NCBI RefSeq assembly: GCF_029227915.1
Contig: NC_079879.1
Span: 12,068,720-12,132,719, forward strand
Length of the DNA: 64,000 bases
Reading direction: 5' to 3'
From: Hydractinia symbiolongicarpus
Taxonomy: Eukaryota
Shown: one piece after another, positions 13,252 through 35,360 of the stretch
How the letters are laid out: each line of letters begins with the position of its first letter
How positions within the stretch are numbered: the stretch's first letter is position 1
Made by a program: the position numbers and the translations under genes
Notes under the pieces: generated by a model
Databases searched by the model: none
What the model was told of the DNA's origin: nothing
The model's input: only the letters and a program-made list of their open reading frames with translations

Positions 13252-13769
13252 CCTTACAAAAGACTATCATTCCAGTTATCAGGACTTGTTGGTAAATTGT
13301 AACTGTGTGCAAATTCACGAACTGCATTTACGTATAATCTGCATAGAGATTTATAAAACATTAACAGACGAAAATCCGTCATTTATGCAGTCTTCTTACG
13401 CTATAAGACGTATCAGTTACAATTTGCGCAGCAAAAATAGTCTACTTTTACCATCCACAAGTTCAACACGCTTTGATACTAGATCTTTTTTGTTTCGAAG
13501 TTGTTTGTTATGGAACTCTTTGCCTGGGAGAGTGAAGAGTTCTCTCTCCATCAAGAGTTTTAAAAGGGAACTTATCTCTTAATCTTTCAGATCTCTGCAC
13601 ATGTAGGCTACATAAGTCGGCTATTCTCGTCTCTTATTTTTAATGTTTGGTACATCTTTGCGTTTTTTGTTTATTTTTTTTTTACTTTAGTTGGTGTAAA
13701 TTAGTATTTACTATTTACTATGCAATACCAACTTTAAGTAAATGAAATATTAAAAATAATAAAAAAACC
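13252..13769 (+). mobile_element. 5'-truncated LINE 3' fragment (CR1/L2-like ORF2 C-terminal tail plus A-rich 3' end) inserted between satellite units.
   Basis: Insertion interrupts the satellite between ...ACAAGCTTAG and ATGCTGAGAAG. ORF 13286-13582 ends ...RSFLFRSCLLWNSLPGRVKSSLSIKSFKRELIS, the RSF..LWNSLP..FK..L signature of CR1/L2-type ORF2 C-termini. It finishes in AAATGAAATATTAAAAATAATAAAAAAACC. Confidence 0.55.
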
Positions 13770-15243: not shown

Positions 15244-16867
15244 TGGGCATATGTGAGAAATACTGAACACCTCGATGACACAAATATACTGGGTAAGCAC
15301 TCAGCAATTAAAGCTGAAATGACCAAGGTTACAAAATCGCTTCAGCGTAATGAGAGTAAAAGTAGGACTGTTCGGATTCTATCTACTTTGAGGAGACATC
15401 TCGGGTGAAAAAAAGATGATAATCAAACAAAGAATCCGTAAAGAGATAGCGAAGTTACTTCTTGCTGCTCGACAATGTTGACTATATGGAGATTTTTAGG
15501 CAACAAATCTGTTAATTTAATAATTCTCTCAATGGACTCTTGCCTGCACAGCTTGTTAGTATTTGCTTGTGATTGCACCTAAATTATCAGTAAGCGCGAA
15601 CTTAGTACGACGAAGATGACTGTACTTCACGGGCTTTACTCATAAGAACGCTCAACATGCCAAAATACTTCAGCGAACGTTCTTAACTTTCCGATTTGAA
15701 TTTTCAAAATGTTCTTAAATTTTTTTAACTTTCTCCTTATTTTCAAAGTTTTGAACTTTAAAGGAAAATTTCAGTGTAACGTTGAGAGAAGCAGTAACCT
15801 TCCCTGAAAGCAAGTGTATGCTTAGGGAAGACATACTTTTCAAGACCTGGACTGCAACGTTCGCGTGATGCAGGTTTTCCGATGAAAAAATGCAACTGGT
15901 GCTTGTCAGGACTGAGAAAACTGAGTGTACGATGTCCCCGCAGTCCCGCTGCGATCATAAGGATACTCAGTGCCTCCCAGTATTGACAAGGGCTTAAATC
16001 GTCTCAACATGATCTTAACTTTTGGCGTCTAGTTCCAAATGTTCGCATGGAGTGGTCCCTCAGGACTTTGTGTGTTACCACATATGGAGAATACCACTCC
16101 TTCTTTTAGCTAAAGTTTCCCTACCCCCAACCGATTCGAAAAATTTCCAAAATGACGAATACCGTACAGATGGTACGTACCTTAAACTCACGGACCTATA
16201 TGTAGATTTAGTTTTATATCTGTAAATGTTCAAAGTATTGCGTACAAAGGTCATAATGCGCGTGGTTTTATTGCTCATGGTGTTGATTCATTTGCTCGTG
16301 CTGCGCATGTGTGAGAAATAGTGAACACCTCGATGACACAGATAAACTGGGTAAGCGTTCAGCAATTAGAACTGGAATGACCGAGGTTACAAAATCGCTT
16401 CAGCGTAATGAAAGTAAAAGTAGGACTGTTCGGATTCTATCTACTTTGAGGAGACATCTCGGGTGAAAAAAAGATGATCATCAAACAAAGAATTCGTAAA
16501 GAGATACTGGAGTTACTTCTTCCTGCTCGACAATGTTGACTATACGGAGATTTTTAGGCAACAGATCTGTTAATTCAACAATTCTCTCAATGCACTCTTG
16601 CCTGCACAGCTTGTTAGTATTTGCTAGTGATTTCACCTAAATTATCAGCAACCGCGAACTTAGTACGACGTAGATGACTGTACTACACGGGTTTTAGTCA
16701 TAAGAACGCTCAACATGCCAAGATCCTTCAGCGAACGTCCTTAACTTTCCGATTTGAATTTTCAAAATGTTCTTAATTTTTTTTTAACTTTCTCCTTATT
16801 TTGCAAGTTTTGAACTTTAAAGGAGAATTTCAGTGCAACGCTAAGGAAGCTGTAATCTTCTCTGAGC
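15244..16867 (-). repeat. Satellite variant in reverse orientation. Two ~1060-bp units, each reverse-complement satellite plus a ~390-bp unrelated insert (15245-15640 and 16305-16700).
   Basis: Satellite orientation flips at 15243/15244 (GACGCCCAAAATT|TGCTGGGCATATGTGAG). The 390-bp insert sequence is duplicated 1060 bp apart. Confidence 0.7.
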
Positions 16868-16970
16868 GCTTGTTGAAGGGGTTGTTGAGACATCGAAACC
16901 TGTCGGAGCCTGGTAGAGAGATGTCAAGCTCTGATAGAATTTTGCGGATCTGGATGTAGACGTGGAAGCG

Positions 16971-17285
16971 TTAGACGGCACGAACTAGAGGCAAAGAGGC
17001 GGTCAGATGATGCATGGAAATGCCACAAGCGGATGTTGCGCAGTAGGTAGCGAAGTTAAGCTGAGTAGACCAGAGACTGAAAGGGTGACTCTGCCACTTC
17101 TTTACTGCTGTGCCTGAGTGGAATTCATAGTCGACAAAGATGTCTGGAAATTTCACCATGAACGAGGACCCCTGCGCGTCAATAACGATGTCCTGCACTA
17201 AGAGGTCATCTCCCTTGAGCCTCTCCAGATATCTCCCGTGATTGGGCGCGTACTTTGCCTTCGGGTTGTACGAGTAAATGCTCAT
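16971..17285 (-). CDS. Hypothetical protein (element ORF-6 homolog). Arm-1 copy has the intact N-terminus MSIYSYNPKAKYAPNHGRYLERLKGDDLLVQDIVIDAQGSS and is C-terminally truncated by the arm boundary.
   Basis: ~95% aa identity to 32170-32661 (+). Confidence 0.5.
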   Translation of the reverse strand: MSIYSYNPKAKYAPNHGRYLERLKGDDLLVQDIVIDAQGSSFMVKFPDIFVDYEFHSGTAVKKWQSHPFSLWSTQLNFATYCATSACGISMHHLTASLPLVRAV

Positions 17286-17631
17286 ATTTTATTTAAGAAA
17301 CAGGGTAGCTCTGAAGTCTATTAGCATTTGACCTACGTGGTTGAACCTATACGCAAACGGTGATTTTGCTATATACACTGCAGGGTCCACGCCAGGGTCG
17401 CTAAGGGTCTCGAAGTCCGCATCCAGGTCATGAACGGTCTCTACAGGATCGAGGATCTTGCAACCATAGTCAACAGTCAGCCAGGAGACAAGATCAAGCT
17501 GTTCGTTTTGAAAAATGGAATCTGTAGACTCCGCGTGGCAAAGGGATACAACGTCGTGATTCACGAACCACTGCAGGGGCTCATGGGGATAACCTTCGAC
17601 CGGAAGGTAAATTACTTTACCGAGGGCGACT

Positions 17632-18008
17632 ATGACAGATCGAGTAGAGCAGTACCTGCGGGGTGAGATTAAAGAGTGTGGCAAGCTCGTTAAAAAGTTC
17701 AAGATGAATGGCACGTGGGTGTGTTTTTGTGATCATGGGTTGTTGAGTATCAGAATTATCACCTCAGGTGTCGGAATGGGAGCGCTAGCCTCGGGGCTCG
17801 GTGCCCCACTATGCATAGCCGTGGCAGGTATAACCATTGCTGTGGGAATTGGGCGAGCGGGTCTGGGAAGAGACTGGGTGCAAAATCCAAGAAACACGAG
17901 GGGATAAGATTACTGGCAGAGACTAAGCTCAACTCAGTCATCGACCTGATCAGCAGGGCTGTGAAGAACGGTATTATCAACGACTACGAGTTCAGCCTGA
18001 TCATGTAG
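17632..18008 (+). CDS. Small membrane protein with a glycine-zipper helix (GVGMGALASGLGAPLCIAVAGITIAVGIGRAGL). The arm-1 copy is frameshifted near 17880.
   Basis: ORFs 17632-17907 and 17811-18008 together match 31187-31384 (-). TM/Gly-zipper composition. Confidence 0.4.
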
Positions 18009-18205
18009 GAAACGCAAAAATACATGATGCTGAAGGAGTATATCAGACAACGTGTGAAGCGGATCGTTAGACACAATCAATGAACGAGAACGTCTGCAGC
18101 TTGTTATAAAGGGTCTGTCTGCAGCTTGTTATGAAGGGTCAATCTGCCTGCATTTTCATAGATCTCTCGAGCCTAGTGTGTTAAACAACACACTGGATCA
18201 GCTGC

Positions 18206-18508
18206 CTACTCGATATCGAGTACTTCTCCAGTGTCTTGATCGATGATAAGGCAGCCATCATATACGACACGTCGCTGCGTTTCAGCGAGCTCTGTCGAGT
18301 ATTGCTCAAGATTATTCGGCCACGCAATTTTGGTACAGGGTTCACAATAGGGACCGTCTCTCTGTGCTGAGGCATCATTGTGCTTGGCCTTGCAGATCGC
18401 CTCGAGAAGAGGGGCCTTATTCATCGTTGAGTAACGAGGAATCTTCAGTTCCCTCTCTTCTTTTTCTGGTTCGTCAACCTTCATGTTTGTTTCTATGGTT
18501 GAAGACAA
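18206..18508 (-). CDS. Hypothetical 100-aa protein (element ORF-3 homolog).
   Basis: Conserved inverted copy at 30677-30976 (+), ~85% aa identity. Confidence 0.5.
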   Translation of the reverse strand: MSSTIETNMKVDEPEKEERELKIPRYSTMNKAPLLEAICKAKHNDASAQRDGPYCEPCTKIAWPNNLEQYSTELAETQRRVVYDGCLIIDQDTGEVLDIE

Positions 18509-18671
18509 CCATAGAGAGCCTTGACAAGCCCTTACAATACATTGAAGCTGTCGATCGTATCGTCATCAGAGTTTCTAAAGTAACAAGCGATGTATCTTTC
18601 AACCTCTTTGTATTTACACTCTTCCAGGTAGGTCTGCAGGTAGTAGTTTGAACCTTGCCTGTAGATGCTCG

Positions 18672-19253
18672 CTAGTTTGATGATGGCCTTACACTCACAA
18701 CTTTCCTTTTGTATCTTTTTCTTATGGAAGTTGGTTCCGACTTAACCATCCCACTGTTTGTTAAGTGATACCCTTCCAAGTATCCCACCTTGATCAGGAT
18801 TTTCTCGTATTGATTTAGCCACTCAGGATAGCTGGCCAGATCGAATGACATAGTTAGCAGCTCCTCCTTAATCCTAGCCTTTTCAGCCTTCCTCTGCTGA
18901 TAGGCAGAGAGTAGTTCAGGCTCATCCTCAGAAACCCTGAGGCACATGTCTCGCGTCTTGAACCAGTCCGGCACGTACTCCAACATGCGGGGATACTTTT
19001 CAACAGCCTTGCTACACATGTCTTGAGTCTTGAATTGATCCGGCACGTGCCTGAGCATCCTAGGATACTCCTCAACAGCCTCGCTGCATATGTCTCGTGT
19101 CTTTAACCTGTCGGGGATATACTTGAATAGGTAGGGATTCCTTCTAACAAACTTGTTGCACATGTCTTGCGTCTTAAATTGATCTGGCACATACCTGATC
19201 AGTGGGAGATCCTGTTTAACCAAATTTTTCCACCTTTCTTGCCTCCAGCTCAT
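18672..19253 (-). CDS. Repeat protein with ~23-aa tandem repeats (YVPDQFKTQDMCNKxVxxNPxLFK). Resembles DUF4116-type repeats. The arm-1 copy is fused to the next ORF by a deletion.
   Basis: Four tandem repeats in the translation. Homolog 29428-29883 (+). Confidence 0.5.
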   Translation of the reverse strand: MSWRQERWKNLVKQDLPLIRYVPDQFKTQDMCNKFVRRNPYLFKYIPDRLKTRDICSEAVEEYPRMLRHVPDQFKTQDMCSKAVEKYPRMLEYVPDWFKTRDMCLRVSEDEPELLSAYQQRKAEKARIKEELLTMSFDLASYPEWLNQYEKILIKVGYLEGYHLTNSGMVKSEPTSIRKRYKRKVVSVRPSSN

Positions 19254-19304
19254 CTCTATCGTAGAGACTTCCTCAACGAGGTGGTCAGACCTTTCAGAAG
19301 GGAC

Positions 19305-19559
19305 TTTCCCCTACTCAATTACACTTTTGCAATGTCAGCATATTTTCTTGTGAGGGCTACATGATTTGTGATATTGATGACGTCATTAGTTTTGGTGAAT
19401 GCGCGTGCACGTGAGCGGGGGGTGATGTGGTGTGTTGATGACGTCACAGTTTTTTGAGGGGGTGTTGAGGGAGCGTTTTTGATGTGGGGTTTGACCGGGT
19501 GAGATTGTCGAAGGAGGGCTAAAGTAATTATGATGACTCCCTAGTACTACTACTACTAC
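19305..19559 (+). repeat. Terminal repeat T1 of the pPolB element. Inner end CCCTACTCAA, two TGATGACGTCA palindromes, outer end GACTCCCTAG(TAC)5.
   Basis: Same ~250-bp sequence occurs inverted at 29122-29345 and direct at 35080-35360. Abuts satellite at ...TACTACTAC|GGTATTCGTCA. Confidence 0.8.
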
Positions 19560-20885
19560 GGTATTCGTCATTTTGGAAATTTTTGTGATTCGGTTGGGGG
19601 TCAGAAAAACTTAGGAAACAGAAATAATTTTTTCGTAAATCTGTAGTGTCAAACGGAACCCGAAGTAACTACGCCATGAGAATATTTCATACCAGATGTC
19701 CATAAATTTAGATCATGTTGAGAACATTAAAGGCCTTTTCAATACTAAGAAGCACAATGCTCTCATTGTGATGGTGTCGGGAAGGCCTGGACATTGTAGA
19801 CTCAGTTTCCTCAGTGCAAACAAACACCTGTTGCAGTTTCCCATCGGAAATTGTGCGTTGTCCATTTGTTAGACAGGGCAGATGTTAAAAAGTACTTTTT
19901 TCCTAAGCATACCCGTGTTCTCAGAGCAGATTTCAGCTTACAATTTTTAACTTGCTTCTGCAGCAGTGCTAAGGATGGTCAAAGATTTCTGCTTCTTTTA
20001 GCGTTGCACTGAATTTCTCCTTTAAAGTTCAAAACCTGCACAATAGGGAGAAGGTTAAAAACAATTTAAGAACATTTTAAAATTTCAAATGGTGTAAGTT
20101 AAGAACGTTTGCTGCAGTATCTTGGCATGTTAAGCGTTGTTGTGACAGTAATTCTCGCAAATGCACATTAGAAGCAAATGAATCAAAACCAAAAGCAATA
20201 ACAACATGCGCAGAATGGACTCTGTACGCAATGTGGAACATGTTACAGATAAAAAAAAATTCAAACTAAGTTTAAGGTATGTATTATCACTACGTTAAAC
20301 TTTATTTTTGAATTTTTTAGATTCGGTAGGGAGTGGGAGAATTTAGTAAAAAGAAATAATTTTTTTGTGAATCTGCGGCTTCGCACGGAATTCGGAGGAA
20401 CTGCTCCATGAGAACATTTGTCACCCAATGCCCATAAATTTAGATCATGTTGAGAACATTAAAGGCCTTTTCAATACTAAGAAGCACAATGCTCTCATTG
20501 TGATCGTGTCGGGAAGGCCTGGACATTGTAGACTCAGTTTCCTCAATCCAGAAAAACGCCCGTTGCAGTTTTCCATTGGAAAGCTTGCATTTAGCATTTG
20601 TTAAACAGGCCAAGTCTTAAAAAGCACGACTTTTCTAAGCATACCCGTGTTCTCAGAACTATCTTGGCATCTTAAGCGTTCTTATGACATTAATTCTTGC
20701 ACATGCGAAGTAGAAGCAAATGAATCAAAACCGTAAGCAATAAAAACACACGTATTATAGTCTCTGTACGCAATGTTTAACATGTTACAGATAAAAAGAT
20801 TCAAACTAGCTCCAGGTCCCTGAGTTTAAGGTATGTTTAATTTAGCAAAAAGAAAGACTTTTTTTGTGAATCTGTGGTGTCACAC
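19560..20885 (+). repeat. Degenerate satellite-derived segment (~75-80% to array consensus) separating T1 from the next element end.
   Basis: Recognisable satellite head/tail blocks (ATGTTGAGAACATTAAAGGCCTTTTCAATACTAAGAAGCAC...). Confidence 0.7.
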
Positions 20886-21100
20886 GGAGTAATAGTAGGG
20901 GTTCATGATGTGTACAGTGACACTTTTCAACGGCCCAACTTCCACTTAAAAATCCCTCCTCAGCTACCCCTCTAAGAGACTATGACGTCACAGATGAATC
21001 ATACCTCAAATGAGTAAAACACTAACCTTTTTCACTCATGCATGTCATCATGCTCAACTTTAGTAGAAAGGGGGAATTCCCTACTCAAATTTTGAATGCT
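20886..21100 (+). repeat. Variant terminal repeat T' (GGAGTAATAGTAGGGG ... CTATGACGTCACAG ... GGGGGAATTCCCTACTCAAATTTTG) immediately upstream of the pPolB start.
   Basis: Abuts satellite at ...GGTGTCACAC|GGAGTAATAG. Shares the CCCTACTCAA inner motif and one TGACGTCA with T. Mirrored at 28755-28968. Confidence 0.6.
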
Positions 21101-21135
21101 AGGTTCGAGTTTGGAATGTACTTATAGCAAAGAGA

Positions 21136-22925
21136 AATGAGTTAGTTCAAGAATGCGATCTGCCAACATTACAGCACTGCATCAGCGCCGGTAGCAGGAC
21201 CTCGCGACCTACTTGCCGCTCGATTAAAGGACGTGCGAGATGCTGTTACTCTTATTATAATACGGTAAAAGAACAAATTTTGAGAGGGACAACGCCTCAG
21301 GATTATGTCAAACAGGAAGCACAGCAAGACTACTACGATACGGAGGAAAAACGAGAAGAATATCAGTGGATTGAAGACCTCAAACACATGTTCCCTAGAG
21401 AGAAGAAGCAGGCCACGGACCTAGAAGGAATCCAAGACATTCAGCATATTTTTGACGATAAGGATATAAAATTGTTATAAGATGGAAATAGAGTTAAAAT
21501 TTAGAGAATCAACAAGAATCTGAACCAACAACTAACGGATGCGATCATGCGAAAAATTGCACCATACGTAGACATGCGAGTAAATGTTGTTTACAGCTTC
21601 AGCTGTGATATTCACAAAGGTGGAGGTGGTGTATCTCCGTATCACAAAAGTAAGACCTCCAGGTCGGTATCAAGCATCGCAGAAATCGAAGTATTCATAG
21701 AAGAATGTGAAATGACGCTTTTTAAGGATAGTGAGTTTTGGAGTAAAGTATATTTACCGCCAGTCAGAAACCGAGACCCCAAGAGCATATTAAGGAAAAA
21801 TCGTCTTCGATCATGTGCAGATCAAGTTTATAAGCAAGCGTGAGACTTTTTTGGGATGCGGCCCTGTTTTAAATTGCCTGCGAAGAAAGAGATGCATCTA
21901 CAACTTACATAAGGAAGATGAAAGAACTGCAAAATTGGTGAGTTTGTCGATGTCTTGCCATAAACTATCGTGTAGAGAGAAAGCAGCGCGAGAAGCATAT
22001 CACACAAAAAGCCCTCAAACTAGCTCGCAAGTACTATGAGAACCCTAACCTGAAGCGTAAAGACGTACGTTCTACGAAGGTTGTAGATTTCCAGGATATA
22101 GCGAAGCTTTTCAGTATCAACATTAGACACAATCAACCTTGGTATGCTGGATGGACACTGCTTCTACATCAAGGATTTAGACGTACTGGCGCAACAGAAA
22201 TGGGAATGTGGGGTATGCATATAATATAATAAGGGAACAGGGATACAACCTCATCACAGCCTGAGAATGTGACGATCTTCCCAAAACCAAGAAGTACACC
22301 GGTAAGTGTCGCCATTCACGATAGACTTAATGGAGATCCAACGTTCATCGAGCACGTGGACCGAAAATTTTGGTTAAACAGTTAGTGGGGCAGTTGGAAA
22401 GGAGGCATACCCTCATCGTGGAAGAAGTCAAGAGAATGTACCCAAAGCCTGACGATTGCAACATGCTTTCCAAAAAGATCTAGGATGCGTGGAACGAGTG
22501 GGTAAACTAGGTTGCTGTAATTGGTTTTAACAATGGCAAGTATGACATCAATATGATCAAGTGGTACTTTGTGGAGAAAATTAGCTATAGCGATAAGATC
22601 AAATTGGCGAAGAAAGACAACGAATGCATGTTCCTCAAAACCTTGACGTTTAAATTTCTCGATATCAAGATTTCCTCGCTCCTGGTATGAGCTATGACAG
22701 ATGGTCTCTGGAATGTAAACTAAAAAAAAGCTCGTGTTTCCGTACGAGTGCTTAACAAACTACGACAAGTTGAGCCAAGTCGGACCTGTCGCGCACAAAA
22801 ACTTCTACAGTAGTTTTAGTGGGAAAAACACGCTATCTCCTGAAGAGTACGAAACATTCCACGCAGAGTCTTACAACCAGCTTCATGTCACCATTCTCAT
22901 GACGGTGCCAGGCAAACAACTGCTT
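21136..22925 (+). pseudogene. pPolB 5' half, arm-1 copy: N-terminal region plus exonuclease domain. Nonsense at codon 3 (ATG AGT TAG), several frameshifts.
   Basis: ORFs 21280-21480, 21547-21843, 21815-22039, 22734-22964 match the arm-2 ORFs. Exo II-like NNGKYDINMIKWYF near 22530-22575. Confidence 0.6.
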
Positions 22926-25789
22926 TTTCTACCTCCTCAGATCCTTGTGCAATGCAGTATATGACTGAATGAGTAGCTACAAATTGTGTTTACGATGTCT
23001 TCCCGAAATAGACAATTCAAGTAGTGAATGTCGACGCTTATCGAGGTTTTCGTCGGCTGTGGCATCGTCGACTATGAAGGGGCTTTCTTCGCCTGCTAGC
23101 AATGAGGACAGGTTTTAAATCTATTGAAAATGTTGGTCCTTGGGGTCTATCAGGAACACGTAGTCGTCGCGCCAGAGCGAGGCCCTTTCGAGATAGGTAC
23201 CGTTCCACCACAAGGTAGAACATAAAAATATGATATTGTGATAGTGGTGTCTGTATTAATTTTCTAGGAGGTTCATAACACGTTGTGTTTTACCACAAGA
23301 CGTCGGGCCTGTGAAAATTGCTGTGCACGGTTCCATCACAATGTCCAACATTTTTTTCTAATAATTCGACCACTTCTTGTCGTGAATTTTGGGGTATATT
23401 GCTGCACATGAAGAACATATTAACACACCACCGTCAGGACCTAGGATTTTTTTCAGGTTAGGCAAAATTTGACAGATTTTTTGGCAAATTAATATCAAGG
23501 CTTGTGGTGTTGTACAAGGTGAAGCGGCCGTTTTGTGTTTTTATTATAAAAGGAGCTAAAATCGTTCCAAAAGTGAGGTTTTTAGTTATTAAAAATTCTT
23601 CCTAGATTAGAAACGAAAGTGTCTTTATAGCCCAATAAATAAAAGTAACCTCCGTAGTTTAACACTGTTATCCTCGCTAAAACATGCGGATGGAAAACTC
23701 CGTTTGGTAAATTAGACTCGAAACAGGGTTAGCGTTGCCATAGTTCCTTTGAATGACATACCACACTGGTATCATCTAAGCATCTTTTTTACGTTTTATG
23801 CATTTAATACGAGTACAAGTAATCGCCAAGTTACAAATTTGGGGAGTTACTTTATTTCAAAATATGCAATAAGTCTAATAGCTAATAATACAACAAAAAA
23901 TTACATTACAAGACAATTTTAGGAATAGATAGTCAACAGCAATGCAACGTAGAATTATTGTTTGGAAAATTACAGCCTGTGTTAACAACCTGCAAATGCA
24001 AAAACAAAAGCATGTGTAAGATAGCAACGTATAATAAACGACTACAAAAAGTATATAGTAGTTACCCCTTTATGAAGTTAATATTTTTTAATATTAAGGT
24101 TACTGGTGTAGTTTCGCACCAATTTCTATTAAGCATTAATTTTATTGTTAAAAAATTTCCACAAAAGTTGAGTACTTTATTAAGCCAGAAAAGAGTTGGA
24201 ATCAAGAAAAATAACATCAAAACATTTAACATGTCTGCATATTATTTACCCTCACATGCCCCTGTCAACTATGTTTAAAAGTACTTCGAAATTTTTAAAA
24301 AAGTTTTAGTAACTAGGTCAATTTTGAAGATTCTCATATAAAAAGCAACATATATATATATATACAAATTCTACTCATATGCATAAGTTAACATGACATT
24401 TTCATTGGTTTGTAGCAGAACGTTCTTTAACATGCAATTCTTGTTTCGATCTGTATCATTTTACGTGAAAATCATTTCTATCAGTACAAGTTATTTTGAT
24501 ATCATACCCATCCATTTGATATATAAATATATATCCATTGTTTACAGTTTTCCAATATTATAAGGATTCATAATGAATCTCCTGTGTTCTTTAATTGATG
24601 GTGGTTTTAATTGTCAGAAGAATATTCAAAATGGCTGACATCAATATATCTTATCCTAAAACAAAATTATACATGTTGTATTACTCAACAAAAAAGAAGG
24701 AATATTACACAACAAGCTTGGACTATTCTTAGATTGGGTATTGTTTCATTCTTTTGTTTTTAACAATTATATCAGAATTGAAAGCAGCATGGGAAAGTTA
24801 AGGATTTTTAAAATGGGCAGTGGGATGTAGTATATATAATCTACTGTTTAAAAGTTCCAATTCCAAGTCACAATCCTCAGGGACACTCACAATCGAAACG
24901 CAAATTTGACGTTGGGACAAGGTGGAATCCTTTGCCTTTAGGCATATGTCATGCTGTAAACATTGATTTCTTAGAGAAGAAGGTATTTTGAACTTGTCGT
25001 CTACCTGCTTAACACGAGCACATATCCGAGTGCGTATGATTTCAGAGACTGACAACATTCAAATATTACCTATCTGTAGATTCCCAGGGAAAAGATATCT
25101 ACAGACTTATTTACATTTTTGCGTTTATGAAAGAGCTGTGCCATAGTTATTTTACAAGAATTATTTTTTTTCCACAGACACAAAGATACACAGTTGCATA
25201 AACGACTACACGAAGCCTGTGACCTTAAGACAATAAACAAAAAAACTAAAAAAATTCCAACCAATACACATGCAACTTAGTAATACTCTATGCCAAACAA
25301 TACATACACCTCCAAACATTTTTTGACTGCCATGACAGTGTTTACACAAATTGCCTCGGTTATCTCGTTTAGCATTGGGCTTTAATAAACAAACAATCGA
25401 TGTCAAGTTAAAAATTTTTGTTTTGATAAAAAAGAGATTTAAATCACACGTTTTATAAGAACATCTGGTGTTTCACCACGTTTAAGACTAGTTCTTGAAA
25501 CAAAAGTGTCTTAAATCCAGTAGCAGTAAAAACTAAAATATATGAAGTATAACTTACTTTAAAGCAATGAATTTATTGTCTCTTGCAGAGGCAGGGTGAA
25601 GGTTTGGTTTGGGACAACAACATGGCACACGTGATAAAAAAACTTTCCATTTCCAATCCTTTCAGTATCTGAAAGGGTTTCCAAATTCAAAACGTCTTCA
25701 TTAAAGTTATACAATTGCTTTGAAATTCTAGCCATTTGAACTTGACCTAGCTAAGCCATGTTGAAAAAGAAGCATCCACTTGTCGTCCG

Positions 25790-26194
25790 TAACCATACCC
25801 GTGGTAGTTTTAGGCGTATAAACTTAAAAACCCACGAACGTTTTAGGCGCTTTAACTTAAAAACCCACGGACGTTTTAGGCGTTTTTCCTTCCCATTTCA
25901 GAACTTCATTCATTGAAATTTGAAAACCCACGGACGTTTTAGGCGAATCGACATTTTTCCTAAGATTGCCCCGGGTTTGCTTTTTTTTAATAAAATATCA
26001 ATCATGAAAAAATCGATAAAACGCGGCATCGTCATGAAGTCGAAATCGGCGGATGCCTAAACCAATTTACAAAAATAATGCATTTTTTTATAGATTATTT
26101 TATCTAAATCTATAAAAAAAAATCTAGGCCACAAATTTATTTAGGCTGAGGCAATTGCCTAGGCCGCCTAACACTAGATCCGCCCCTGTCTACC
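25790..26194. mobile_element. Probable terminus of a DNA-transposon-like element with TTAGGC/CCTAGG-type subterminal motifs and tip CAGGGGCGGAT (rc). Same family as 47445-48040. Its insertion coincides with truncation of the arm-2 pPolB copy.
   Basis: rc(26160-26190)=GACAGGGGCGGATCTAGTGTTAGGCGGCCTAGGCAATTGCC versus 47995-48030 GCCTAATTAGGTCCAGGGGCGGATACAGG. Confidence 0.4.
25795..25975. repeat. ~4 tandem copies of a ~33-bp unit (AACTTAAAAACCCACGGACGTTTTAGGCG).
   Basis: Direct reading. Confidence 0.7.
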
Positions 26195-28717
26195 GGGACG
26201 AGTAGGCTCTCAACTCGTGGTACCTACAAAATACGATCGCGGGGCCACCGACCATCCCCGTTTGGAACAACTCGTAGGCCTCATTCTTTATACATCTTTT
26301 ACATGTTTTCTGCACTTCTTTGCATTCCTTGCATTTGCTGTTGTAGCAGTCTTTTTTACACTTGTGCTTGCATGGTTCTCCTGGAGCGTATAGCTGCAAC
26401 TTTGGATTCAGTCGTAGAGACTTGTTCAGGACGTGGCGCATCGACACACTTGGAATGCTTACTGCGTCCTTCAAAATGTCTATTTATTCATCGTAATACT
26501 ACTGCCTCGTCTTGTCTGCGGCTTCAATGAATGGCTCCACGTCGACTAGATTTTACACGCGACCAATCCATCATGGTGACGCAGCCTCGCTTGTAAGACT
26601 CTGCGCGGAATGTTTCGTACTCTTCAGGAGATAGCGTGTTTTTCCCACTAAGACTACTGTAGAAGTTTTCGTGCGCGACAGGTCCAACTTGGCTCAACTT
26701 GTCGTAGTTTGTTAAGCACTCGTACGGAAACACGAGCTTTTTGAGTTTACATTCCAGAGACTTGCATCATCTGTCATAGCTCATAACAGGAGCGAGAAAA
26801 TTCTTGATATCGAGAAATTTAAACCTCAAGGTTATCGCTATAGTCTTTCGCAATTTTCTCCACAAAGTACCACTTGATCATATTGATGTCATACTTGCCA
26901 TTGTTAAAAACAATTACAGCAACCTAGTTTACCCACTCGTTCCACGCATCCTAGATCTTTTTGGAAAGCATGTTGCAATCGTCAGGCTTTGGGTACATTC
27001 TCTTCACTTCTTCCACGATGAGGGTATGCCTCCTTTCCAACTGCTCCACGAATTGTTTAACCAAAATTTTCGGTCCTCGTGCTCGATGAACGTTGGATCT
27101 CCATTAAGTCTATCGTGAATGGCGACACTTACCGGTGTACTTCTTGGTTTTGGGAAGATTGTCACATTCTCAGGCTGTGATGAAGTTGTATCCCTGTTCC
27201 CTTATTATATTTTCCTTCTTCAACAGGGCAATCCATGCCAGTACCACCCGTAGTACTCGTAAACGGTCTTCGTGATAGGCTCATAACCGTCAACTTTCCA
27301 CACCTTTCCTTTGTCAACACGTATAACACGTTCACCACAATGACCACATAAAGCATGTTGAATATGTCTCCAAGTCTTCTTGGACATGTATTTAATCCAT
27401 TGAGATGCAGCGTAGCTGAAGTTTTCACCGTAAAAGACCTCCTCCGACTTGCTCGGCACACTTTCTCCCTTTTGCAAATGATTGTTGTCTTGACCCCTTC
27501 GCATTCATTTTTCTTATGCCGCGATAGGTGGTCAGCTTTTTTAAAAACTTGAATGCATACCCCACATTCCCATTTCTGTTGCGCCAGTACGTCTAAATCC
27601 TTGATGTAGAAGCAATGTCCACCCAGCATACCAAGGTTGATTGTGTCTAAACCTTTTTTGTATTGATTCTGGCCGTAGATGAGTCTCCATGGTACCTTTT
27701 CAGAGTTTTTCTTGGGCTCAAAGACTCTGATGTTGATACTGAAAAGCTTCGCTATATCCTAGAAATCTATAACCTTCGTAGAACGTACGTCTTTACGCTT
27801 CAGTTTAGGGTTCTCATAGTACTTGCGAGCTAGTTTGAGGGATTTTTGTGTGTATGCTTCTCGCGCTGCTTTCTCTCTACACGATAGTTTATGGCAAGAC
27901 ATCGCCAAACTCACCAATTTTGCAGTTCTTTCATTTTCCTTATGTAAGCTGTAGATGCATCTCTTTCTTAGCAGGCAATGTAGAAGAGGGTCGCATCCCA
28001 AAAGAGGCTTACGCTTGCTTATAAACTGCACATGATCGAAGACGATTTTTCCTTAATATGCTCTTGGGTTCTCGGTGGTTCTAACTGGCGGTAAATATAC
28101 TTTACTCCAAAACTCACCATCCTGAAGACGCATCATTTCACATTCTTCTAAGAGTACTTCGATTTCTGCGATGCTTGATACCGACCTGGAATTCTTACTT
28201 TTGTGATACGGAGTTACACCACCTCCACCTTTGTGAATATCACAGCTGAAGCTGTAAATAACATTTACTCGCATGTCTATGTATGGTGCAATTTTTCGCA
28301 TGATCGCATCCGTTAGTTGTTGGTTCAGATTCTTGTTGATTTTCTAAGTTCTAACTCTATTTCCATCTTATAACAATTTTATATCCTTATCGTCAAAAAT
28401 ATGCTGAATGTCTTGGATTCCTTCTAGGGCCGTGGCCTGCTTCTTCTATCTAGGGAACATGTGTTTGAGGTCTTCAATCCACTGATATTCGTCTTGTATG
28501 TCCTCCGTATCGTAGTAGTCTTGCTGTGCTTCCTGTTCGACATAATCCTGAAGCGTTGTCCCTCTTAAAATTTGTTCTTTTACCGTATTATAATAAAGAG
28601 TAACAGCATCTCGCACGTCCTTTAATCGAGCGGCAAGAGGGTCGCGAGTTCCTGCTACCGGCGCTGATGCAGTGCTATTACAGCATTGCATCAGATCGCA
28701 TTCTTGAACCAACTCAT
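26195..28717 (-). pseudogene. pPolB 5' half, arm-2 copy: N-terminus, exonuclease region, C2HC-like zinc finger, up to the pre-motif-A segment EAYELFQTGMVGGPAIVFCRYHE. Frameshifted.
   Basis: ORFs 28446-28712, 28053-28301, 27759-28031, 27162-27629, 26524-26733, 26190-26474. Last 80-100 bp overlap-homologous to 34770-34870. Confidence 0.6.
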
Positions 28718-28754
28718 TTCTCTTTACTATAAGTACATCCCAAACTCGAACCCA

Positions 28755-28968
28755 GCAGTCAAAATTTGAGTAGGGAATTCCCCCTTTCTACTAAAGTTGA
28801 GCATGATGACATGCATGAGTGAAAAAGGTTAGTGTATTACTCATTCGAGGTATGATTCATCTGTGACGTCATAGTCTCTTAGAGAGGTAGCTGGGTAAGG
28901 ATTCTGAAGTGGGAGTTGGGCCGTTGAATAGTGTCACTGTACACATCATGAACCCCTACTATTACTCC
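28755..28968 (-). repeat. Variant terminal repeat T' (arm-2 copy).
   Basis: Mirror of 20886-21100. TTGAGTAGGG at 28766-28775, TGACGTCA at ~28868. Confidence 0.6.
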
Positions 28969-29121
28969 GTGTGACACCACAGATTCACATAAAAGTATTT
29001 CTTTTTGCGAAATTTGCCCGACTCCCAACCGAATCAAAAAATTTTGAAAATGACGATTACCGTAGAAGTGATACATACTTTAAACTCAGAGACCTAGAAT
29101 TAGTTTGAATTTTTTTAACTG

Positions 29122-29345
29122 TAGTAGTAGTAGCACTAGGGAGTCAACATAATTACCTTAGCGCTCCTTCGACAATTTCACCCGGTCAAACCCCACATCA
29201 AAAACGCTCCCTCAACACCCCCTCAAAAATCTGTGACGTCATCAACACACCACATCACCCCCCCCGCTCACGCGCACGCGCATTCACCAAAACTAATGAC
29301 GTCATCGATATGCTGACATTGCAAAAGTGTAATTGAGTAGGGGAA
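29122..29345 (-). repeat. Terminal inverted repeat T2.
   Basis: Reverse complement of T1 (~90% identity). (TAG)4 tip at 29122. TTGAGTAGGG at 29333-29342. Confidence 0.8.
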
Positions 29346-29427
29346 AGTCCCTTCTAAAAGGTCTGACCACATCGTTGAGGAAGTGCCTACGATAGAGATG
29401 AGATAGAGGCAAGAAAGGTGGAAAAAT

Positions 29428-29883
29428 TTGGTTAAAAAGGATCTCCCACTGATCAGGTATGTGCCAGATCAATTCAAGACGCAAGACATGTGCAACAAGG
29501 TTGTTAGAAGGAATCCCTACCTATTCAAGTATGTCCCCGACACGTTAAAGACACGAGACATATGCAGCGAGACTGTTGAGGAGTATCTTAGGATGCTCAG
29601 GCACGTGCCAGATCAATTCAAGACTCAAGACATGTGTAACAGGGCTGTTGAAAAGTATCCCCGCATGTTGAAGTACGTGCCGGACTGGTTCAAGACGCGA
29701 GACATGTGCCTCAGGGTTTCTGAGGATGAGCCTGAACTACTCTCTGCCTATCACCAGAGGAAGGCTGAAAAGGCTAGGATTAAGGAGGAGCTGCTTCCGA
29801 TGGCCTGGCATCCTGACAGGGTCGTGGACTGCTGCTTCTCAGAAGATGAAAAGGCAGACCTTGAACTCTTGTGGAGTAAATAA
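29428..29883 (+). CDS. Repeat protein (YVPDQFKTQDMC ~23-aa repeats, DUF4116-like). Ancestral ATG start at ~29398 carries a nonsense at codon 3 in this copy.
   Basis: Homolog of 18672-19253 (-). Tandem intragenic repeats. Confidence 0.5.
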   Translation: MVKKDLPLIRYVPDQFKTQDMCNKVVRRNPYLFKYVPDTLKTRDICSETVEEYLRMLRHVPDQFKTQDMCNRAVEKYPRMLKYVPDWFKTRDMCLRVSEDEPELLSAYHQRKAEKARIKEELLPMAWHPDRVVDCCFSEDEKADLELLWSK

Positions 29884-30332
29884 ACGATGAAGGAACACTG
29901 CGATGAATGTGAACGCGTGCTCGACGGGTACGACAGGTGCGATTGTGGACGGAGGTTCTTGAGAAGACCTAGGCTGCTCTGCCGGTCCTGCTACTAGGAG
30001 TGCATCACGTACAATGGTGGTAGCTGCTATTGCGCAACGACATAGAAGAGCCTGGTTGAGGTTTTGTCTCCACAATAAAGAGGATGTTGATGAAATTTGG
30101 AGACAAAACTGTTAAGTAACTGTTACACCAACTCATAACCGCTAAACATCAAAGAGGTGAACATTGAAAACCTTATATTGAGCAACCGTATTGCAGCCAA
30201 CAAGGCGAAGGATCAACGCTTTGTCATAGGGTATCAGGACCAAGACGCACCATAGCACCACTACTGCTCAAAAGCCCTGAAAAGATCCACTCGAAGGGTG
30301 TCTCGTGCTTCAGCGAAGGCTCCGCGCTAACT

Positions 30333-30653
30333 ATGTCATTCGATCTGGCCAGCTATCCTGAGCGGCTAAATCAATACGAGAAAATCCTAATCAAGGTGGA
30401 ATACTTGGAAGGGTATCACTTAACCAACGGCGGTGTGAAAAAAGTCAGAACCAACTTCCATAAGAAAAAGATACAACAGAAAAGTTGTGAGTGTAAGGCC
30501 ATCATCAAACTAGCGAGCATCTACAGGCAAGGTTCAAACTACTACCTGCAGACCTACCTGGAAGAGTGTAAATACAAAGAGGTTGAAAGATACAGCGCTT
30601 GTTACTTTAGTAACTCTGATGACGATACGATCGACAGCTTCAATGTATTGTAA
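30333..30653 (+). CDS. Hypothetical 106-aa protein.
   Basis: Conserved with the C-terminal part of arm-1 ORF 18672-19253 (MSFDLASYPE...). Confidence 0.4.
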   Translation: MSFDLASYPERLNQYEKILIKVEYLEGYHLTNGGVKKVRTNFHKKKIQQKSCECKAIIKLASIYRQGSNYYLQTYLEECKYKEVERYSACYFSNSDDDTIDSFNVL

Positions 30654-30676
30654 GGGCTTTTCAAGGCTTTCTATGG

Positions 30677-30976
30677 TTGTCTTCAACCATAGAAACAAAC
30701 ATGAAGGTTGACGAACCGAGAAAAGAAGAGAGAGAACTGAAGATTCCTCGTTACTCAACGATGAATAAGGCCCTTCTTCTCGAGGCGATCCACAAGGCCT
30801 GGCACAAGGATGCCTCAGCACAGACAGACGGTCCCTATTGTGAACCCTGTACCAAAATTGCGTGGCAGAAAAATCTTGAGCAATACTCGAGAGAGCTCGC
30901 TGAAAAGCAGCGACGTGTCGTATATGATGGTTGCCTTATCATCGATCAAGACACTGGAGAAGTACTCGATATCTAG
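30677..30976 (+). CDS. Hypothetical 99-aa protein.
   Basis: Conserved with 18206-18508 (-). Confidence 0.5.
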   Translation: MSSTIETNMKVDEPRKEERELKIPRYSTMNKALLLEAIHKAWHKDASAQTDGPYCEPCTKIAWQKNLEQYSRELAEKQRRVVYDGCLIIDQDTGEVLDI

Positions 30977-31649
30977 TAGGCAGGTGATCTAGTGTGTTGT
31001 TCAACACACTAGGCTCGAGAGATCTATGAAAAGGCAGGCAGATTGAAGTTTTTTCAGTAGTTCATCTTTGGCCTACTCTCGACCCTCCGCAACAAGCTGC
31101 AGACGTTCTCGTTCATTGATCAAGTACACGACCCGCTTGACACGTTGTCTGATATACTCCTTTAGCATCATGTATTTTTGCTTTTCCTACATGATCAGGC
31201 TGAACTCGAAATCGCTGATGACACCGTTCTGCACAGCCCTGCTGATCAGGTCGATGACTGAGTTGAGCTTAGTCTCTGCCAGTAGTCTTATCCCCTCGTG
31301 TTTCTTGGATTTTGCACCCAGTATCTTCCCAGCGTTCCGCAGACCCGCTCGCCCAATTCCCACGGCAATGGTTATACCTGCCACGGCTATGTACAGTGGG
31401 GCACCGAACCCTGAGGCTAGCGCTCCTATTCCGACACCTCAGGTGATAATGCTGATACTCAACAACCCATGATCACAAAAACGCACCCACGTGCTTTTTA
31501 GCGAGCTTGCCACGCTCTTTAATCTCACCCCGCATGTACTGCTCTACTTTCTCGATTTTCTTGAGTTTGTAGACCTGTGAACTGTCCTTCTACGTGTATT
31601 CCGCAGGTGCACTTGGTAAATTAGCGTAAAGCTTCATAACATCAGTCAT

Positions 31650-32048
31650 TTATTGTATCAGTAGGTGCATCGTAATTCCCATGAACGAAACGTTCTTATC
31701 ATGGTGATACTCGTCTGTCAACATAAATTCAAGGCGATCCGTCGAGCCCTTCAGGTGAAGGTAAACAGGGTTGTCAAATCTCCACGTCAACATATCTCTC
31801 CAAGCGCTTAACTCTTTTACTGGAAACAGGGCCAGCATCTTAGATTTCCTACCATCCAGTAGGCATCTTTCCTCATCGAGCTGTGGCCAAACGAGTCTCA
31901 GTCGCTGGTCCACGTCAGTCTTGTACCAGCTGTCATAGTCGCCCTCGGTAAAGTGATTTGCCTTCCGGTCGAAGGTTATCCCCATGAGCTCCTGCAGTGG
32001 TTTGTGAATCATGATGATGTATCCCTGCCGTATATATAGCAAAATCAC
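31650..32048 (-). CDS. Hypothetical 132-aa protein.
   Basis: Partially conserved at 17430-17666 (+). The antisense ORF 17289-17714 is intact only in arm 1, so strand assignment is uncertain. Confidence 0.35.
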   Translation of the reverse strand: MILLYIRQGYIIMIHKPLQELMGITFDRKANHFTEGDYDSWYKTDVDQRLRLVWPQLDEERCLLDGRKSKMLALFPVKELSAWRDMLTWRFDNPVYLHLKGSTDRLEFMLTDEYHHDKNVSFMGITMHLLIQ

Positions 32049-32169
32049 CGTTTGCGTATAGGTTCAACCACGTAGGTCAAATGGACTTCAGAGCTATCCT
32101 GTTTCTTAAAGAAAAGATGAGCATTTACTCGTACAACCCGAAGGCAAAGTACGCACCCAATCACGCGAG

Positions 32170-32661
32170 ATGCAGGACATCGTTATTGACGCGCAGGGGT
32201 CCTCGTTCATGGTGAAATTTCCAGACATCTCTGTCGACTATGAATTCCACTCAGGCACAGCAGTGAAGGAGTGGCAGAGTCACCCTTTCAGTCTCTGGTC
32301 TACTCAGCTTAACTTCGCTACCTACTGCGCAACATTCGCTTGTGGCATTTCCATGCATCATCTGACCGCCTCTTTGCGTCTAGTTCGTGCCGTCTACCGC
32401 TTCCACGTCTACATCCAGATCCGCAAAATTCTATCAGAGCTTGACATCTCTCTACCAGGCTCCGACAGATTTCGACGTCTCAACAACCCCTTCAACAAGC
32501 AGAAGTTCAGGCAACTAGCTCGTAAATTTGGGGTAAGCGACAGCGAGCAGGAGTGGAGGAACGAGGCCCTCTTCAGTAGCTGGCAACTTCATCACACGGA
32601 CTATCCTGGTTCAGGTCCTACCTATCTTGACGAGGACTCGTGGAGTGGCTGGATCATTTAA
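32170..32661 (+). CDS. Hypothetical protein. N-terminus frameshifted in this copy; true start ~32117 MSIYSYNPKAKYAP.
   Basis: Homolog of 16971-17285 (-). Confidence 0.45.
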   Translation: MQDIVIDAQGSSFMVKFPDISVDYEFHSGTAVKEWQSHPFSLWSTQLNFATYCATFACGISMHHLTASLRLVRAVYRFHVYIQIRKILSELDISLPGSDRFRRLNNPFNKQKFRQLARKFGVSDSEQEWRNEALFSSWQLHHTDYPGSGPTYLDEDSWSGWII

Positions 32662-32709
32662 AAATCTCAGGGTCTCACTCATACTGGCATAGAGAGCCTG
32701 TCGCAAAGC

Positions 32710-33249
32710 GTGAGTCAGGCGAACGCGAGATCTGGCATCCTCGGCAACCAAGGCAGTGCAATTGATGCTCAACGCCTGTACCTGACGAACTTTGAGGAGA
32801 TGATAATTAGACATAGCGATACAAGCAAAGAGATCGGCGAGTTCCAAAACGTGCTGAAGTATGCACGGTCCAAGGTCGATTTCTTGGTTGCTCATGGTGT
32901 CTATATGATTCCCAGTGATATGAGCCTTCACATCGGAAATGTTGTGAATTTCATGAACAAAGTTCTCATCAGCAATCAGTATTTCTCTATCAGTGTTAAC
33001 CCGCAGATTAACCCTAGCACATGTAGTAGCACACGCAGTAGCGAGTCGACTAAACATCAAGCACCAATGCAAGAAAAGGGGGTAGCCGACGAGGGTGGAG
33101 TGCGATTGCCGCACCCCCTTCGTAAAGCCCAAAAGCATGATTATCACCTTGCCCGTCAGGACGGGCAAGGTGATGCAGCTCAGCCTGATGACAGCAAAGC
33201 AGCCTTGATGACAGCAGGAGTAGGGCTAATCCTCGCCTCATTTGCCTGA
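32710..33249 (+). CDS. Hypothetical 179-aa protein with a C-terminal hydrophobic helix. Overlaps an antisense 185-aa ORF (32611-33168), and only one of the two is likely real.
   Basis: ORF length and composition only. Confidence 0.3.
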   Translation: MSQANARSGILGNQGSAIDAQRLYLTNFEEMIIRHSDTSKEIGEFQNVLKYARSKVDFLVAHGVYMIPSDMSLHIGNVVNFMNKVLISNQYFSISVNPQINPSTCSSTRSSESTKHQAPMQEKGVADEGGVRLPHPLRKAQKHDYHLARQDGQGDAAQPDDSKAALMTAGVGLILASFA

Positions 33250-35035: not shown

Positions 35036-35079
35036 CCTGTTTATTATAAGTACGGTTCAACCTCAATCAAAAAAGGTCT

Positions 35080-35360
35080 TGATTTGAGTAGGGGAATACC
35101 CTCTACTCAACTTGGGTATGGTGACTCAGCGGTCGATGCCGTCGTTTCTGTTGATGTCAGCATATTTTCGTGTGAGGGTTACATGACTTGTGATATCGAT
35201 GACGTCATTAGTTTTGGTGGATGCGCATGCGCAGGGGGGGTTGATGACGTCACAGGTTTTTTGGGGGGTGTTTGAGGGAGCGCTTTTGATGTGGGATTTG
35301 ACCGGGTGAAAGTGTCGAAGGAGCGCCAAAGTACTTATGTTGACTCCCTAGTACTACTGT
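35080..35360 (+). repeat. Terminal inverted repeat T3.
   Basis: ~85-90% identical to T1. TTGAGTAGGG at 35084-35093. Two TGATGACGTCA sites. Ends CTAGTACTAC then satellite in minus orientation. Confidence 0.8.

Follow-up and report, generated by a model that had tools for sequence, protein, structure and literature searches.

Layout and gene content of the inverted repeat

We analysed a window of 64,000 nt from Hydractinia symbiolongicarpus (GCF_029227915.1, NC_079879.1: 12,068,720-12,132,719, forward strand), in which a satellite array is followed by the two arms of an inverted repeat and the spacer that they enclose (Table 1). The arms contain the first ~780 codons of a protein-primed family-B polymerase (pPolB), a DUF4116 repeat protein and three or four accessory genes, and every arm gene is disrupted or truncated.

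Table 1. Position and state of the features in the window.
Feature	Position	Strand	Details
Satellite array	1-16859		743/980-bp units on a 237-bp sub-repeat; flanks arm 1; orientation flips near 15241-15640
Arm 1	16868-22876		6009 bp; reverse-complement blocks collinear with 26591-32500
ORF-X counterpart, arm 1	16872-17283	-	cut off by satellite
220-aa-like counterpart, arm 1	17646-18114	+	same TAG as arm 2, at 18008
178-aa-like counterpart, arm 1	18535-18849	-	
DUF4116 repeat-protein gene, arm 1	18675-19310	-	ORF open; fused to next gene by 533-bp deletion; Pfam DUF4116 1.1e-26
Satellite-like block, arm 1 only	19559-20836	+	1.28 kb, upstream of pPolB; ~155-bp remnant in arm 2 (28969-29123)
pPolB pseudogene, arm 1	21137-22898	+	codons 1-780; 17 stops/frameshifts and two large deletions; protein-guided alignment, tblastn
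Spacer	22877-26590		3714 bp; three different pieces; unique within the window apart from arm edges
A32/FtsK-type packaging ATPase pseudogene fragment	22875-23351	-	residues 1-159; abuts inner end of arm 1
Spacer core	23352-26213		AT-rich (33% GC), host-like composition, unique
Arm-2 pPolB continuation inside spacer	26214-26590	-	codons ~780-869; no arm-1 counterpart
pPolB pseudogene, arm 2	26346-28715	-	codons 1-855; 22 stops/frameshifts; protein-guided alignment, tblastn
Arm 2	26591-32500		5910 bp; underlying element copy runs on beyond both arm ends
DUF4116 repeat-protein pseudogene, arm 2	29373-29883	+	stop at 29406; Pfam DUF4116 1.8e-15
178-aa-like accessory gene relic, arm 2	30162-30650	+	homology to L002 2-538 and L007 20443-21060
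220-aa-like gene relic, arm 2	31037-31629	-	TAG common to both arms, at 31187
ORF-X pseudogene (~380 aa), arm 2	32119-33234	+	first ~140 codons only within arm 2; homologs P0155-P0161
Third pPolB relic, more divergent	33585-35125	-	codons 1-45 joined to C-terminal ~450 codons; just outside arm 2
Satellite-like sequence	35365-36281	-	upstream of third pPolB relic; borders host-like DNA
Arm 1/arm 2 block pairs, first four	16868-17385/32500-32023, 17542-17638/32026-31930, 17643-18858/31548-30326, 18856-19562/29795-29118		reverse complement
Arm 1/arm 2 block pairs, last three	20839-22127/29014-27726, 22123-22220/27650-27553, 22223-22876/27211-26591		reverse complement

Comparison of the window with itself resolved five to seven collinear reverse-complement blocks between the arms, each 89-98% identical with gaps counted. 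As this collinearity extends over 6 kb, a chance match is excluded and the inverted repeat is real. A preliminary description of the same DNA had reported an inverted duplication, which is borne out by the self-comparison; its arms stand, with their ends refined from 16868-22925 and 26575-32505 to those in Table 1, but the spacer is longer than the 3.3 kb that it gave. Over 4320 aligned bases the arms are 94.8% identical (224 mismatches, 5.2%; Jukes-Cantor 5.4%), in line with the earlier estimate of ~93-95%; these divergence figures leave out 17385-17642 versus 31549-32022, where local rearrangement made the MAFFT alignment unreliable. Divergence is uneven, ranging from 2 to 7% by block; patchy gene conversion or effects of the alignment may account for this.

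The arms also differ by 33 indel events, the largest of 1.28 kb, 533, 381 and 339 bp, with another of 80 bp. The second of these corresponds to a block that had been described as specific to arm 2: it is present there, including a 37-aa Cys-rich ORF (29884-29994), and its size is 533 bp (29796-30328) rather than 450 bp. The 1.28-kb satellite-like block of arm 1 and the 381-, 339- and 80-bp indels had been overlooked.

Using the N-terminal part of the 855-aa pPolB of L001 as reference for protein-guided alignment, we found all pPolB copies within the window to be pseudogenes. Both defects previously placed at the start of the gene are there: the nonsense codon of arm 1 at codon 3 (21145), and the frameshift of arm 2, together with an inserted stop, at codons 8-14. 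The third, divergent copy beside arm 2, on which the earlier account was silent, contains a match to Pfam DNA_pol_B_2 above the cut-off (34009-34941, 1.4e-06). Its DNA is 71-89% identical to that of the arms, against 95% arm-to-arm; judged from their sequence, the arms are each other's closest relatives. An alternative genetic code was rejected as a source of the in-frame stops: all three stop codons would need reassigning, the stops come together with frameshifts and deletions, and a 310-codon ORF without such codons is preserved in the third copy.

Among the other arm genes, the repeat-protein start is intact in arm 1 (ORF 18672-19253) and interrupted in arm 2 by a Trp-to-stop change, as had been reported. 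The same holds for ORF-X (previously ORF-6), whose N-terminus is in frame in arm 1 and whose frameshift in arm 2 is a 34-bp deletion at 32172. The arm-1 copy of ORF-X carries its own stop at 16971, which is new here. ORF-X had no match in Pfam or PHROGs, and an AlphaFold model based on seven homologs reached a mean pLDDT of 36, too low to identify the protein. In L002 and L004, the ORF-X homolog adjoins capsid-like and ATPase genes.

Homology of these genes identifies the arms as decayed pieces of a Maverick/Polinton-type (adintovirus-like) element. Complete relatives encode an rve integrase and an A32-type packaging ATPase, have a capsid-like gene as well, and are bounded by terminal inverted repeats of ~1 kb; the repeats of L008 are ~960 bp long (7296-8257 and 21327-22287, 97-99% identical), and those of L007 at least 55 bp. 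The window retains pPolB (Pfam DNA_pol_B_2, and alignment of the arms to the pPolB of relatives) and, in the spacer rather than the arms, the ATPase fragment, which is 55% identical to residues 1-159 of the L004 ATPase (tblastn, E=1e-55), itself a match to Pfam Pox_A32 (2e-09). Searches of the window by tblastn gave no match to the rve integrase with the proteins of L001, L007 and L008, all three of which have the gene (Pfam rve), and none to a double jelly-roll major capsid or penton protein with the capsid-like proteins of relatives, which are borderline for Pfam Capsid_N (23.9 bits, cut-off 24, and 17.2 bits). An adenain-like cysteine protease was found neither in the window nor, by Pfam, on the proteins scanned from L001, L002, L004 and L008. 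No terminal inverted repeats were found around the arms, and no element termini are definable in the window. A right/left terminal-repeat junction between the DUF4116 gene and pPolB found no support: no inverted repeat was detected in that interval, which contains a direct repeat and short TGACGTCA palindromes. The Maverick/Polinton nature of the locus had not been recognised before.

The closest proteins (76-78% identical) come from sponge-associated assemblies. Further copies from the source genome were sought in metagenome contigs with two exact 30-mers, one of them across a shared stop, and in viral contigs with pPolB; neither search gave a match, and these collections apparently do not include the source genome. 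In the spacer core, we found no repeats, transposon termini or protein homology. All three pPolB starts are preceded, in the same relative orientation, by satellite-like sequence, and the 17-kb satellite appears to be an expansion of element-derived repeats. Compared with the terminal repeats of L001 and L007, the satellite-like sequence of the window showed similarity over no more than ~30-60 nt, at the pPolB start.

Shared and private lesions

At least ten lesions (seven stop codons and three frameshifts) and a ~40-codon deletion are common to both arms at the same aligned nucleotides and codons. Six of the stops, the three frameshifts and the deletion lie in pPolB, and the seventh stop is the TAG of the 220-aa-like gene. 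A 94-nt stretch of arm 1, 22430-22523, contains two TAG codons among these lesions. As at least ten disabling lesions occupy identical nucleotides, the alignment indicates that the element was dead before it was copied and that the progenitor was already a relic. The preliminary description had stated that each arm keeps intact the genes that are broken in the other, which implies an intact ancestor and complementary damage; this does not agree with a pPolB that is broken identically in both.

The shared lesions also bear on whether the element's own replication or structure made the palindrome, either as a tail-to-tail replicative dimer or as the very long terminal inverted repeats of a giant element. 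Protein-primed linear elements do have terminal inverted repeats, and the ~1-kb repeats of the relatives reach the pPolB start codon. However, the copied unit already had at least ten disabling lesions, and since nine of these lie in the polymerase, it could not have replicated itself. Moreover, the outer arm ends cut ORF-X mid-gene, and the relatives are ~15 kb long with a single pPolB each. We consider this origin effectively refuted.

In addition to the shared lesions, each arm has about 8-9 private ones. Arm-to-arm mismatches at codon positions 1:2:3 number 42:30:24 (rates of 5.6%, 4.0% and 3.2%), and non-coding columns differ at 5.7%. As third positions show no excess, we conclude that both copies have decayed neutrally and that selection on the arms has been absent since copying, in agreement with the earlier view of duplicated pseudogenes diverging without constraint. 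The locus shows no sign of function and has the character of ordinary genomic debris.

The locus, with 6-kb arms that are 95% identical, a loop of 3.7 kb and similarity to the essential pPolB, has a geometry that would suit a co-opted hairpin-RNA locus, in which read-through transcription gives a ~6-kb dsRNA, and from it endo-siRNA- or piRNA-like small RNAs that silence active Mavericks of the family. We regard such a role as improbable. The arms diverge at the neutral rate with no signal of conservation; the large indels break the potential duplex; and an Rfam scan of 15-37 kb of the window matched no known RNA family.

Origin of the duplication

The arms end inside genes, at codon ~140-148 of ORF-X and codon ~775-780 of pPolB, and beyond these points the arm-2 copy contains a further ~250 ORF-X codons and ~90 pPolB codons. 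Because the arms end within genes and the arm-2 copy runs past both ends, the copied unit appears to be an arbitrary chromosomal segment and not a transposon unit. It is these boundaries alone that would argue against a family of identical dead copies. The earlier analysis had recognised neither the gene-cutting ends of the arms nor the overrun of the arm-2 copy nor the lesions common to both arms.

The boundaries likewise weigh on the suggestion that a single defective, non-autonomous Maverick derivative was mobilised in trans and inserted twice, close together and in opposite orientation. Amplification from a dead master copy would also produce shared lesions, the family occurs repetitively in related genomes, with as many as 703 members per cluster, and a third copy lies adjacent. 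Against this, the arms stop within ORF-X and pPolB instead of at element termini, lack bounding terminal inverted repeats and are overrun at both ends by the arm-2 copy, and at 71-89% identity the sole other copy in the window is much more distant. Two such insertions are therefore unlikely.

An assembly artefact, in which a fold-back or chimeric contig united two divergent haplotypes or paralogous repeat copies, is also unlikely, although marginally less so. The satellite in which the locus is embedded spans 17 kb and changes orientation, misjoins readily occur in regions of this kind, and the junctions at 22876/22877 and 26590/26591 are not confirmable from the window sequence. The preliminary description had already argued from the non-identity of the arms that they are no artefact, and our measurements strengthen its case: 5.2% substitutions, 33 indels with several of hundreds of base pairs, and non-homologous flanks (the ATPase fragment versus the pPolB continuation, and the satellite versus the rest of ORF-X) make a simple collapsed or mirrored assembly error unlikely. 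In addition, allelic haplotypes would be expected to remain collinear beyond the arms.

We therefore favor, with a probability of roughly three in four, an inverted segmental duplication made by the host genome, within a region rich in satellite, from an already dead relic, followed by neutral drift of functionless copies. A Maverick/Polinton-type element would have integrated in the animal genome, died and gained at least ten disabling mutations. A chromosomal segment of this relic of at least 6 kb, running from mid-ORF-X through the DUF4116 gene to pPolB codon ~780, would then have been copied in inverted orientation ~3.7 kb away, by host processes such as fold-back or template-switch repair and not by transposition. 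Afterwards, both copies would have drifted to the present 5.2% substitutions, acquiring their private lesions, large deletions and changes in repeat length. We infer both the mechanism of duplication and the order of the later deletions.

Comparison with known systems and significance

Degraded endogenous adintovirus and Maverick relics are common in animal genomes (PMC8502044). The window resembles the Maverick/Polinton and "adintovirus" relics described by Starrett et al. 2021 (PMC8502044) in its protein-primed family-B polymerase and A32-type ATPase fragment. As in published degraded adintovirus relics, the pseudogenes are full of stops and frameshifts, and their homologs sit in ~15-kb elements with rve and capsid-like genes. 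Unlike complete Mavericks, the relic is partial and rearranged, without a recognisable integrase, capsid gene, protease or termini; unlike described adintovirus relics, it has a DUF4116 repeat protein and several unannotated genes.

In form, the locus is like inverted segmental duplications and large palindromes, with kilobase mirror arms around a unique spacer in a repeat-rich region and boundaries unrelated to genes or transposons; what was duplicated bears no relation to the boundaries of mobile elements and comes from one locus that was already mutated. Large inverted duplications in eukaryotes include fold-back or template-switch products and the palindromes of sex chromosomes, the latter carrying live genes at >99.9% identity maintained by arm-to-arm gene conversion. 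The arms described here differ from sex-chromosome palindromes in being 95% identical, with 33 indels, dead genes only and no homogenisation. Inverted transposon duplications that silence their own family are known from Mu killer of maize and animal hairpin-RNA loci. Like Mu killer, the present locus duplicates a portion of a transposon in inverted orientation, including part of an essential enzyme gene; unlike Mu killer, its arms show purely neutral decay. If it were nevertheless a hairpin-RNA locus, it would do in an animal what Mu killer does in maize, with a virus-like DNA element as its target.

As one more degraded Maverick/adintovirus relic in a local inverted duplication, the locus is of little general importance. 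Its modest value is as a dated case of a dead virus-like element that was probably copied by host repair rather than transposition. A further point of interest is that it indicates a Maverick lineage with ties to sponge-associated sequences, whose several unannotated genes comprise ORF-X, the 178-, 220- and 224-aa-like genes and a DUF4116 repeat protein.

Geometry and gene content of the arms

Reverse-complement blocks recovered by a repeat search and self-BLAST of the window are collinear from the outermost pair (16868-17385/32500-32023) to the innermost (22223-22876/27211-26591), so the inverted repeat claimed in the preliminary description is real. Over BLAST-supported blocks, arms 1 and 2 differ at 224 of 4320 aligned bases (p = 5.2%; Jukes-Cantor distance 5.4%; 2.0% to 7.4% per block), and global alignment of arm 1 with the reverse complement of arm 2 contains 33 indel events. 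That the arms are an assembly chimera is unlikely, given their 5% difference, the kilobase-scale indels between them and flanks that are not collinear.

Both arms contain pseudogenes of a protein-primed family-B polymerase (pPolB), a DUF4116 repeat protein and the unannotated genes that we label 178-like, 220-like, 224-like and ORF-X. By content, they are a partial relic of the Maverick/Polinton (adintovirus-like) family, covering codons 1-780 (arm 1) and 1-855 (arm 2) of related polymerases. The Pfam DNA_pol_B_2 match is a third pPolB copy just outside arm 2 (33585-35125), a relic in which codons 1-45 are fused to the C-terminal ~450 codons and which is 71-89% identical to the arms. This copy keeps a 310-codon open frame (34009-34941), and its protein is 76-78% identical to sponge-associated sequences.

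pPolB and an A32 ATPase are the Maverick features found in the window; no integrase or capsid gene is found there and no termini could be defined, although relatives have all three. Contigs holding homologs of the arm genes are recognisable Maverick/Polinton (adintovirus-like) elements: L007 and L001 carry pPolB, rve, Bro-N and A32, and in L002, L004 and L005 ORF-X adjoins capsid-like and ATPase genes. Contig L008 provides a useful reference for the Maverick lineage of the arms, as a complete, apparently intact ~15-kb element (7296-22287) with 960-bp terminal inverted repeats (7296-8257 and 21327-22287, 97-99% identical), pPolB starting at the inner edge of the terminal repeat, and genes for a Pox_A32 ATPase, a Capsid_N-like protein and an rve integrase. 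Each L008 repeat also holds a 131-aa ORF and 18-bp tandem repeats. Among polymerase homologs the nearest, at 76% identity, is from GCA_020423245, an assembly of the sponge Halichondria panicea obtained from metagenome data (PMC8994243); animals widely harbour degraded endogenous relics of the adintovirus/Maverick class (PMC8502044). In the same sponge assembly, an entire 4.7-kb contig (L006, 64-4715) is a tandem repeat of an internal pPolB fragment with a ~790-bp period, annotated as genes of 549, 261, 261, 378 and 97 aa; it represents either a satellite derived from the polymerase or an artefact of nanopore assembly.

Within the 339-bp block missing from arm 1, arm 2 encodes a conserved pPolB N-terminal motif, 'VDGY...TVYEYxGCxWHGC' (27220-27504). 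This region has no Pfam match; it resembles an endonuclease-like domain shared among these animal pPolB proteins. The DUF4116-pPolB intergenic region contains repeated CRE-like TGACGTCA palindromes, also found upstream of the third pPolB copy, and each divergent gene start is closely preceded by a direct repeat with GGGACTTTCC and GGGGAATTCCC (NF-kB-site-like motifs). These motifs may be what is left of promoters of the element.

Coordinates of features in the window and lesions of the two arms
Feature	Arm 1	Arm 2	Elsewhere	Length
Arm	16868-22876	26591-32500		6009 bp; 5910 bp
Spacer			22877-26590	3714 bp
Satellite-like block, arm 1 only	19559-20836			1.28 kb
Block restricted to arm 2		29796-30328		533 bp
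Block restricted to arm 2		31549-31929		~381 bp
Block restricted to arm 2		27213-27551		339 bp
Block restricted to arm 2				80 bp
Shared pPolB stop, codon 104 (TAA)	21480	28368
Shared pPolB stop, codon 112 (TAG)	21504	28344
Shared pPolB stop, codon 212 (TAA)	21793	28053
Shared pPolB stop, codon 527 (TGA)	22264	27170
Shared pPolB stop, codon 638 (TAG)	22483	26951
Shared pPolB stop, codon 647 (TAG)	22510	26924
Shared 220-like stop (TAG)	18008	31187
Private pPolB stops	codon 3	inserted after codons 8 and 74; codons 312, 714
Private pPolB frameshifts	codons 39, 201, 703, 721	codons 14, 281, 414; codon 691 (with deletion)
Private deletions	80 bp; 339 bp
Private ORF-X lesions	stop at 16971	34-bp deletion
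Private DUF4116 lesions	533-bp deletion, fusion to neighbouring gene	stop at 29406
TGACGTCA/GGGACTTTCC/GGGGAATTCCC motif sites	19298-19318, 21068-21088, 19362-19446	28859-29309	35198-35260
Satellite, 743/980-bp units			1-16859	16.9 kb
Satellite-unit homology	19559-20836	28969-29123	1-16859, 35365-36281
hAT dimerisation domain (hAT transposase C-terminal domain)			48799-49308
O-GlcNAcase-type NAGidase exon			57134-57730
O-GlcNAcase-like exons, span			57134-59284

Host setting and satellite

The hAT domain, the NAGidase exon, the 16.9-kb satellite and a background GC content of ~33% identify the window as animal nuclear DNA; the arms have 43-45% GC. Reading of the sequence also suggests a reverse-transcriptase-like ORF (60447-61034) and a helicase-like ORF (39680-40111), and a 408-aa ORF (42631-43857) has no match in Pfam.

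Each of the three pPolB starts is immediately preceded by sequence homologous to the 743/980-bp satellite unit, in constant orientation relative to the gene; at the third copy this sequence adjoins host-like DNA. Relatives have tandem repeats within their terminal inverted repeats, beside pPolB. Expansion of the terminal-repeat region of the element may thus have produced the 17-kb satellite; no sequence similarity was found between the satellite and the terminal repeats of relatives. The array runs on the + strand to ~15241 and on the - strand at 15640-16844, beside arm 1, and the minus-strand piece is itself inverted with respect to the satellite-like block inside arm 1 (16697-16859/19982-20146, 86% identical), an indication that the region has been rearranged further.

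Shared and private lesions

Lesions were called by comparing related proteins with each arm using a frameshift-aware dynamic program and were then projected through the arm-to-arm alignment. Seven stops are common to both arms, at the identical codon and aligned nucleotide, as are three frameshifts (pPolB codons 261, 576 and 596); a ~40-codon deletion accompanies the codon-576 frameshift. The relic that was duplicated had therefore already been thoroughly inactivated. As its polymerase was already dead, a replicative dimer or giant terminal repeat is refuted as the source of the palindrome. To the shared lesions each arm has added ~8-9 private ones, and arm-to-arm and protein-guided alignments upheld all four examples in the preliminary description. 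That shared and private lesions are similar in number suggests that the relic had been dead before duplication for roughly as long as has elapsed since.

Mismatches at codon positions 1, 2 and 3 number 42, 30 and 24 (750 sites each; chi-square p = 0.065), counted only in columns where the homolog-defined reading frame is concordant in both arms, and are thus fewest at third positions; non-coding columns diverge by 5.7%. This codon-position pattern shows no sign of purifying selection between the arms, and together these values bear out the neutral evolution proposed earlier. The transition/transversion ratio is ~1.4, and 41 of the 224 changes lie in CpG context. At 2.7% per lineage, typical animal neutral rates, which are not host-specific, would put the age of the duplication between a few million and a few tens of millions of years. 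A role for the arms in hairpin-RNA silencing, which their geometry allows, is very improbable given this neutral drift.

Boundaries and origin of the arms

At its outer end (16868), arm 1 stops within ORF-X, at about codon 140-148, and borders the satellite; in the arm-2 copy, ORF-X continues to 33234. At its inner end (22876), arm 1 breaks off within pPolB, at about codon 775-780, and adjoins an ATPase fragment in inverted orientation (residues 1-159; 22875-23351). Arm-2 pPolB continues to codon ~869 at 26214 and is followed by 2.9 kb of unique, AT-rich sequence resembling host DNA. What was copied does not correspond to a transposon unit. In complete relatives pPolB occupies one element end, and in L007 the homologs of ORF-X, 220-like and 178-like genes sit at the opposite end; each arm thus joins a 'right-end' module to the 'left-end' polymerase gene, so either the gene order has been rearranged or two tandem relics are involved.

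A host-mediated inverted segmental duplication is the simplest origin, since the arms have ends that fall within genes, old lesions in common and no closer relative than each other. The host would have copied the relic in inverted orientation, with deletions and repeat-length changes following. Independent insertions of a trans-mobilised defective copy would also account for the shared lesions but leave the mid-gene boundaries unexplained, and we regard them as quite unlikely; scans of metagenome and viral contigs for further copies returned no sequence from the same species. The palindrome behaves as inverted segmental duplications of junk DNA generally do and is not of the homogenised functional type; it is a genuine and well-explained finding, and an ordinary one.
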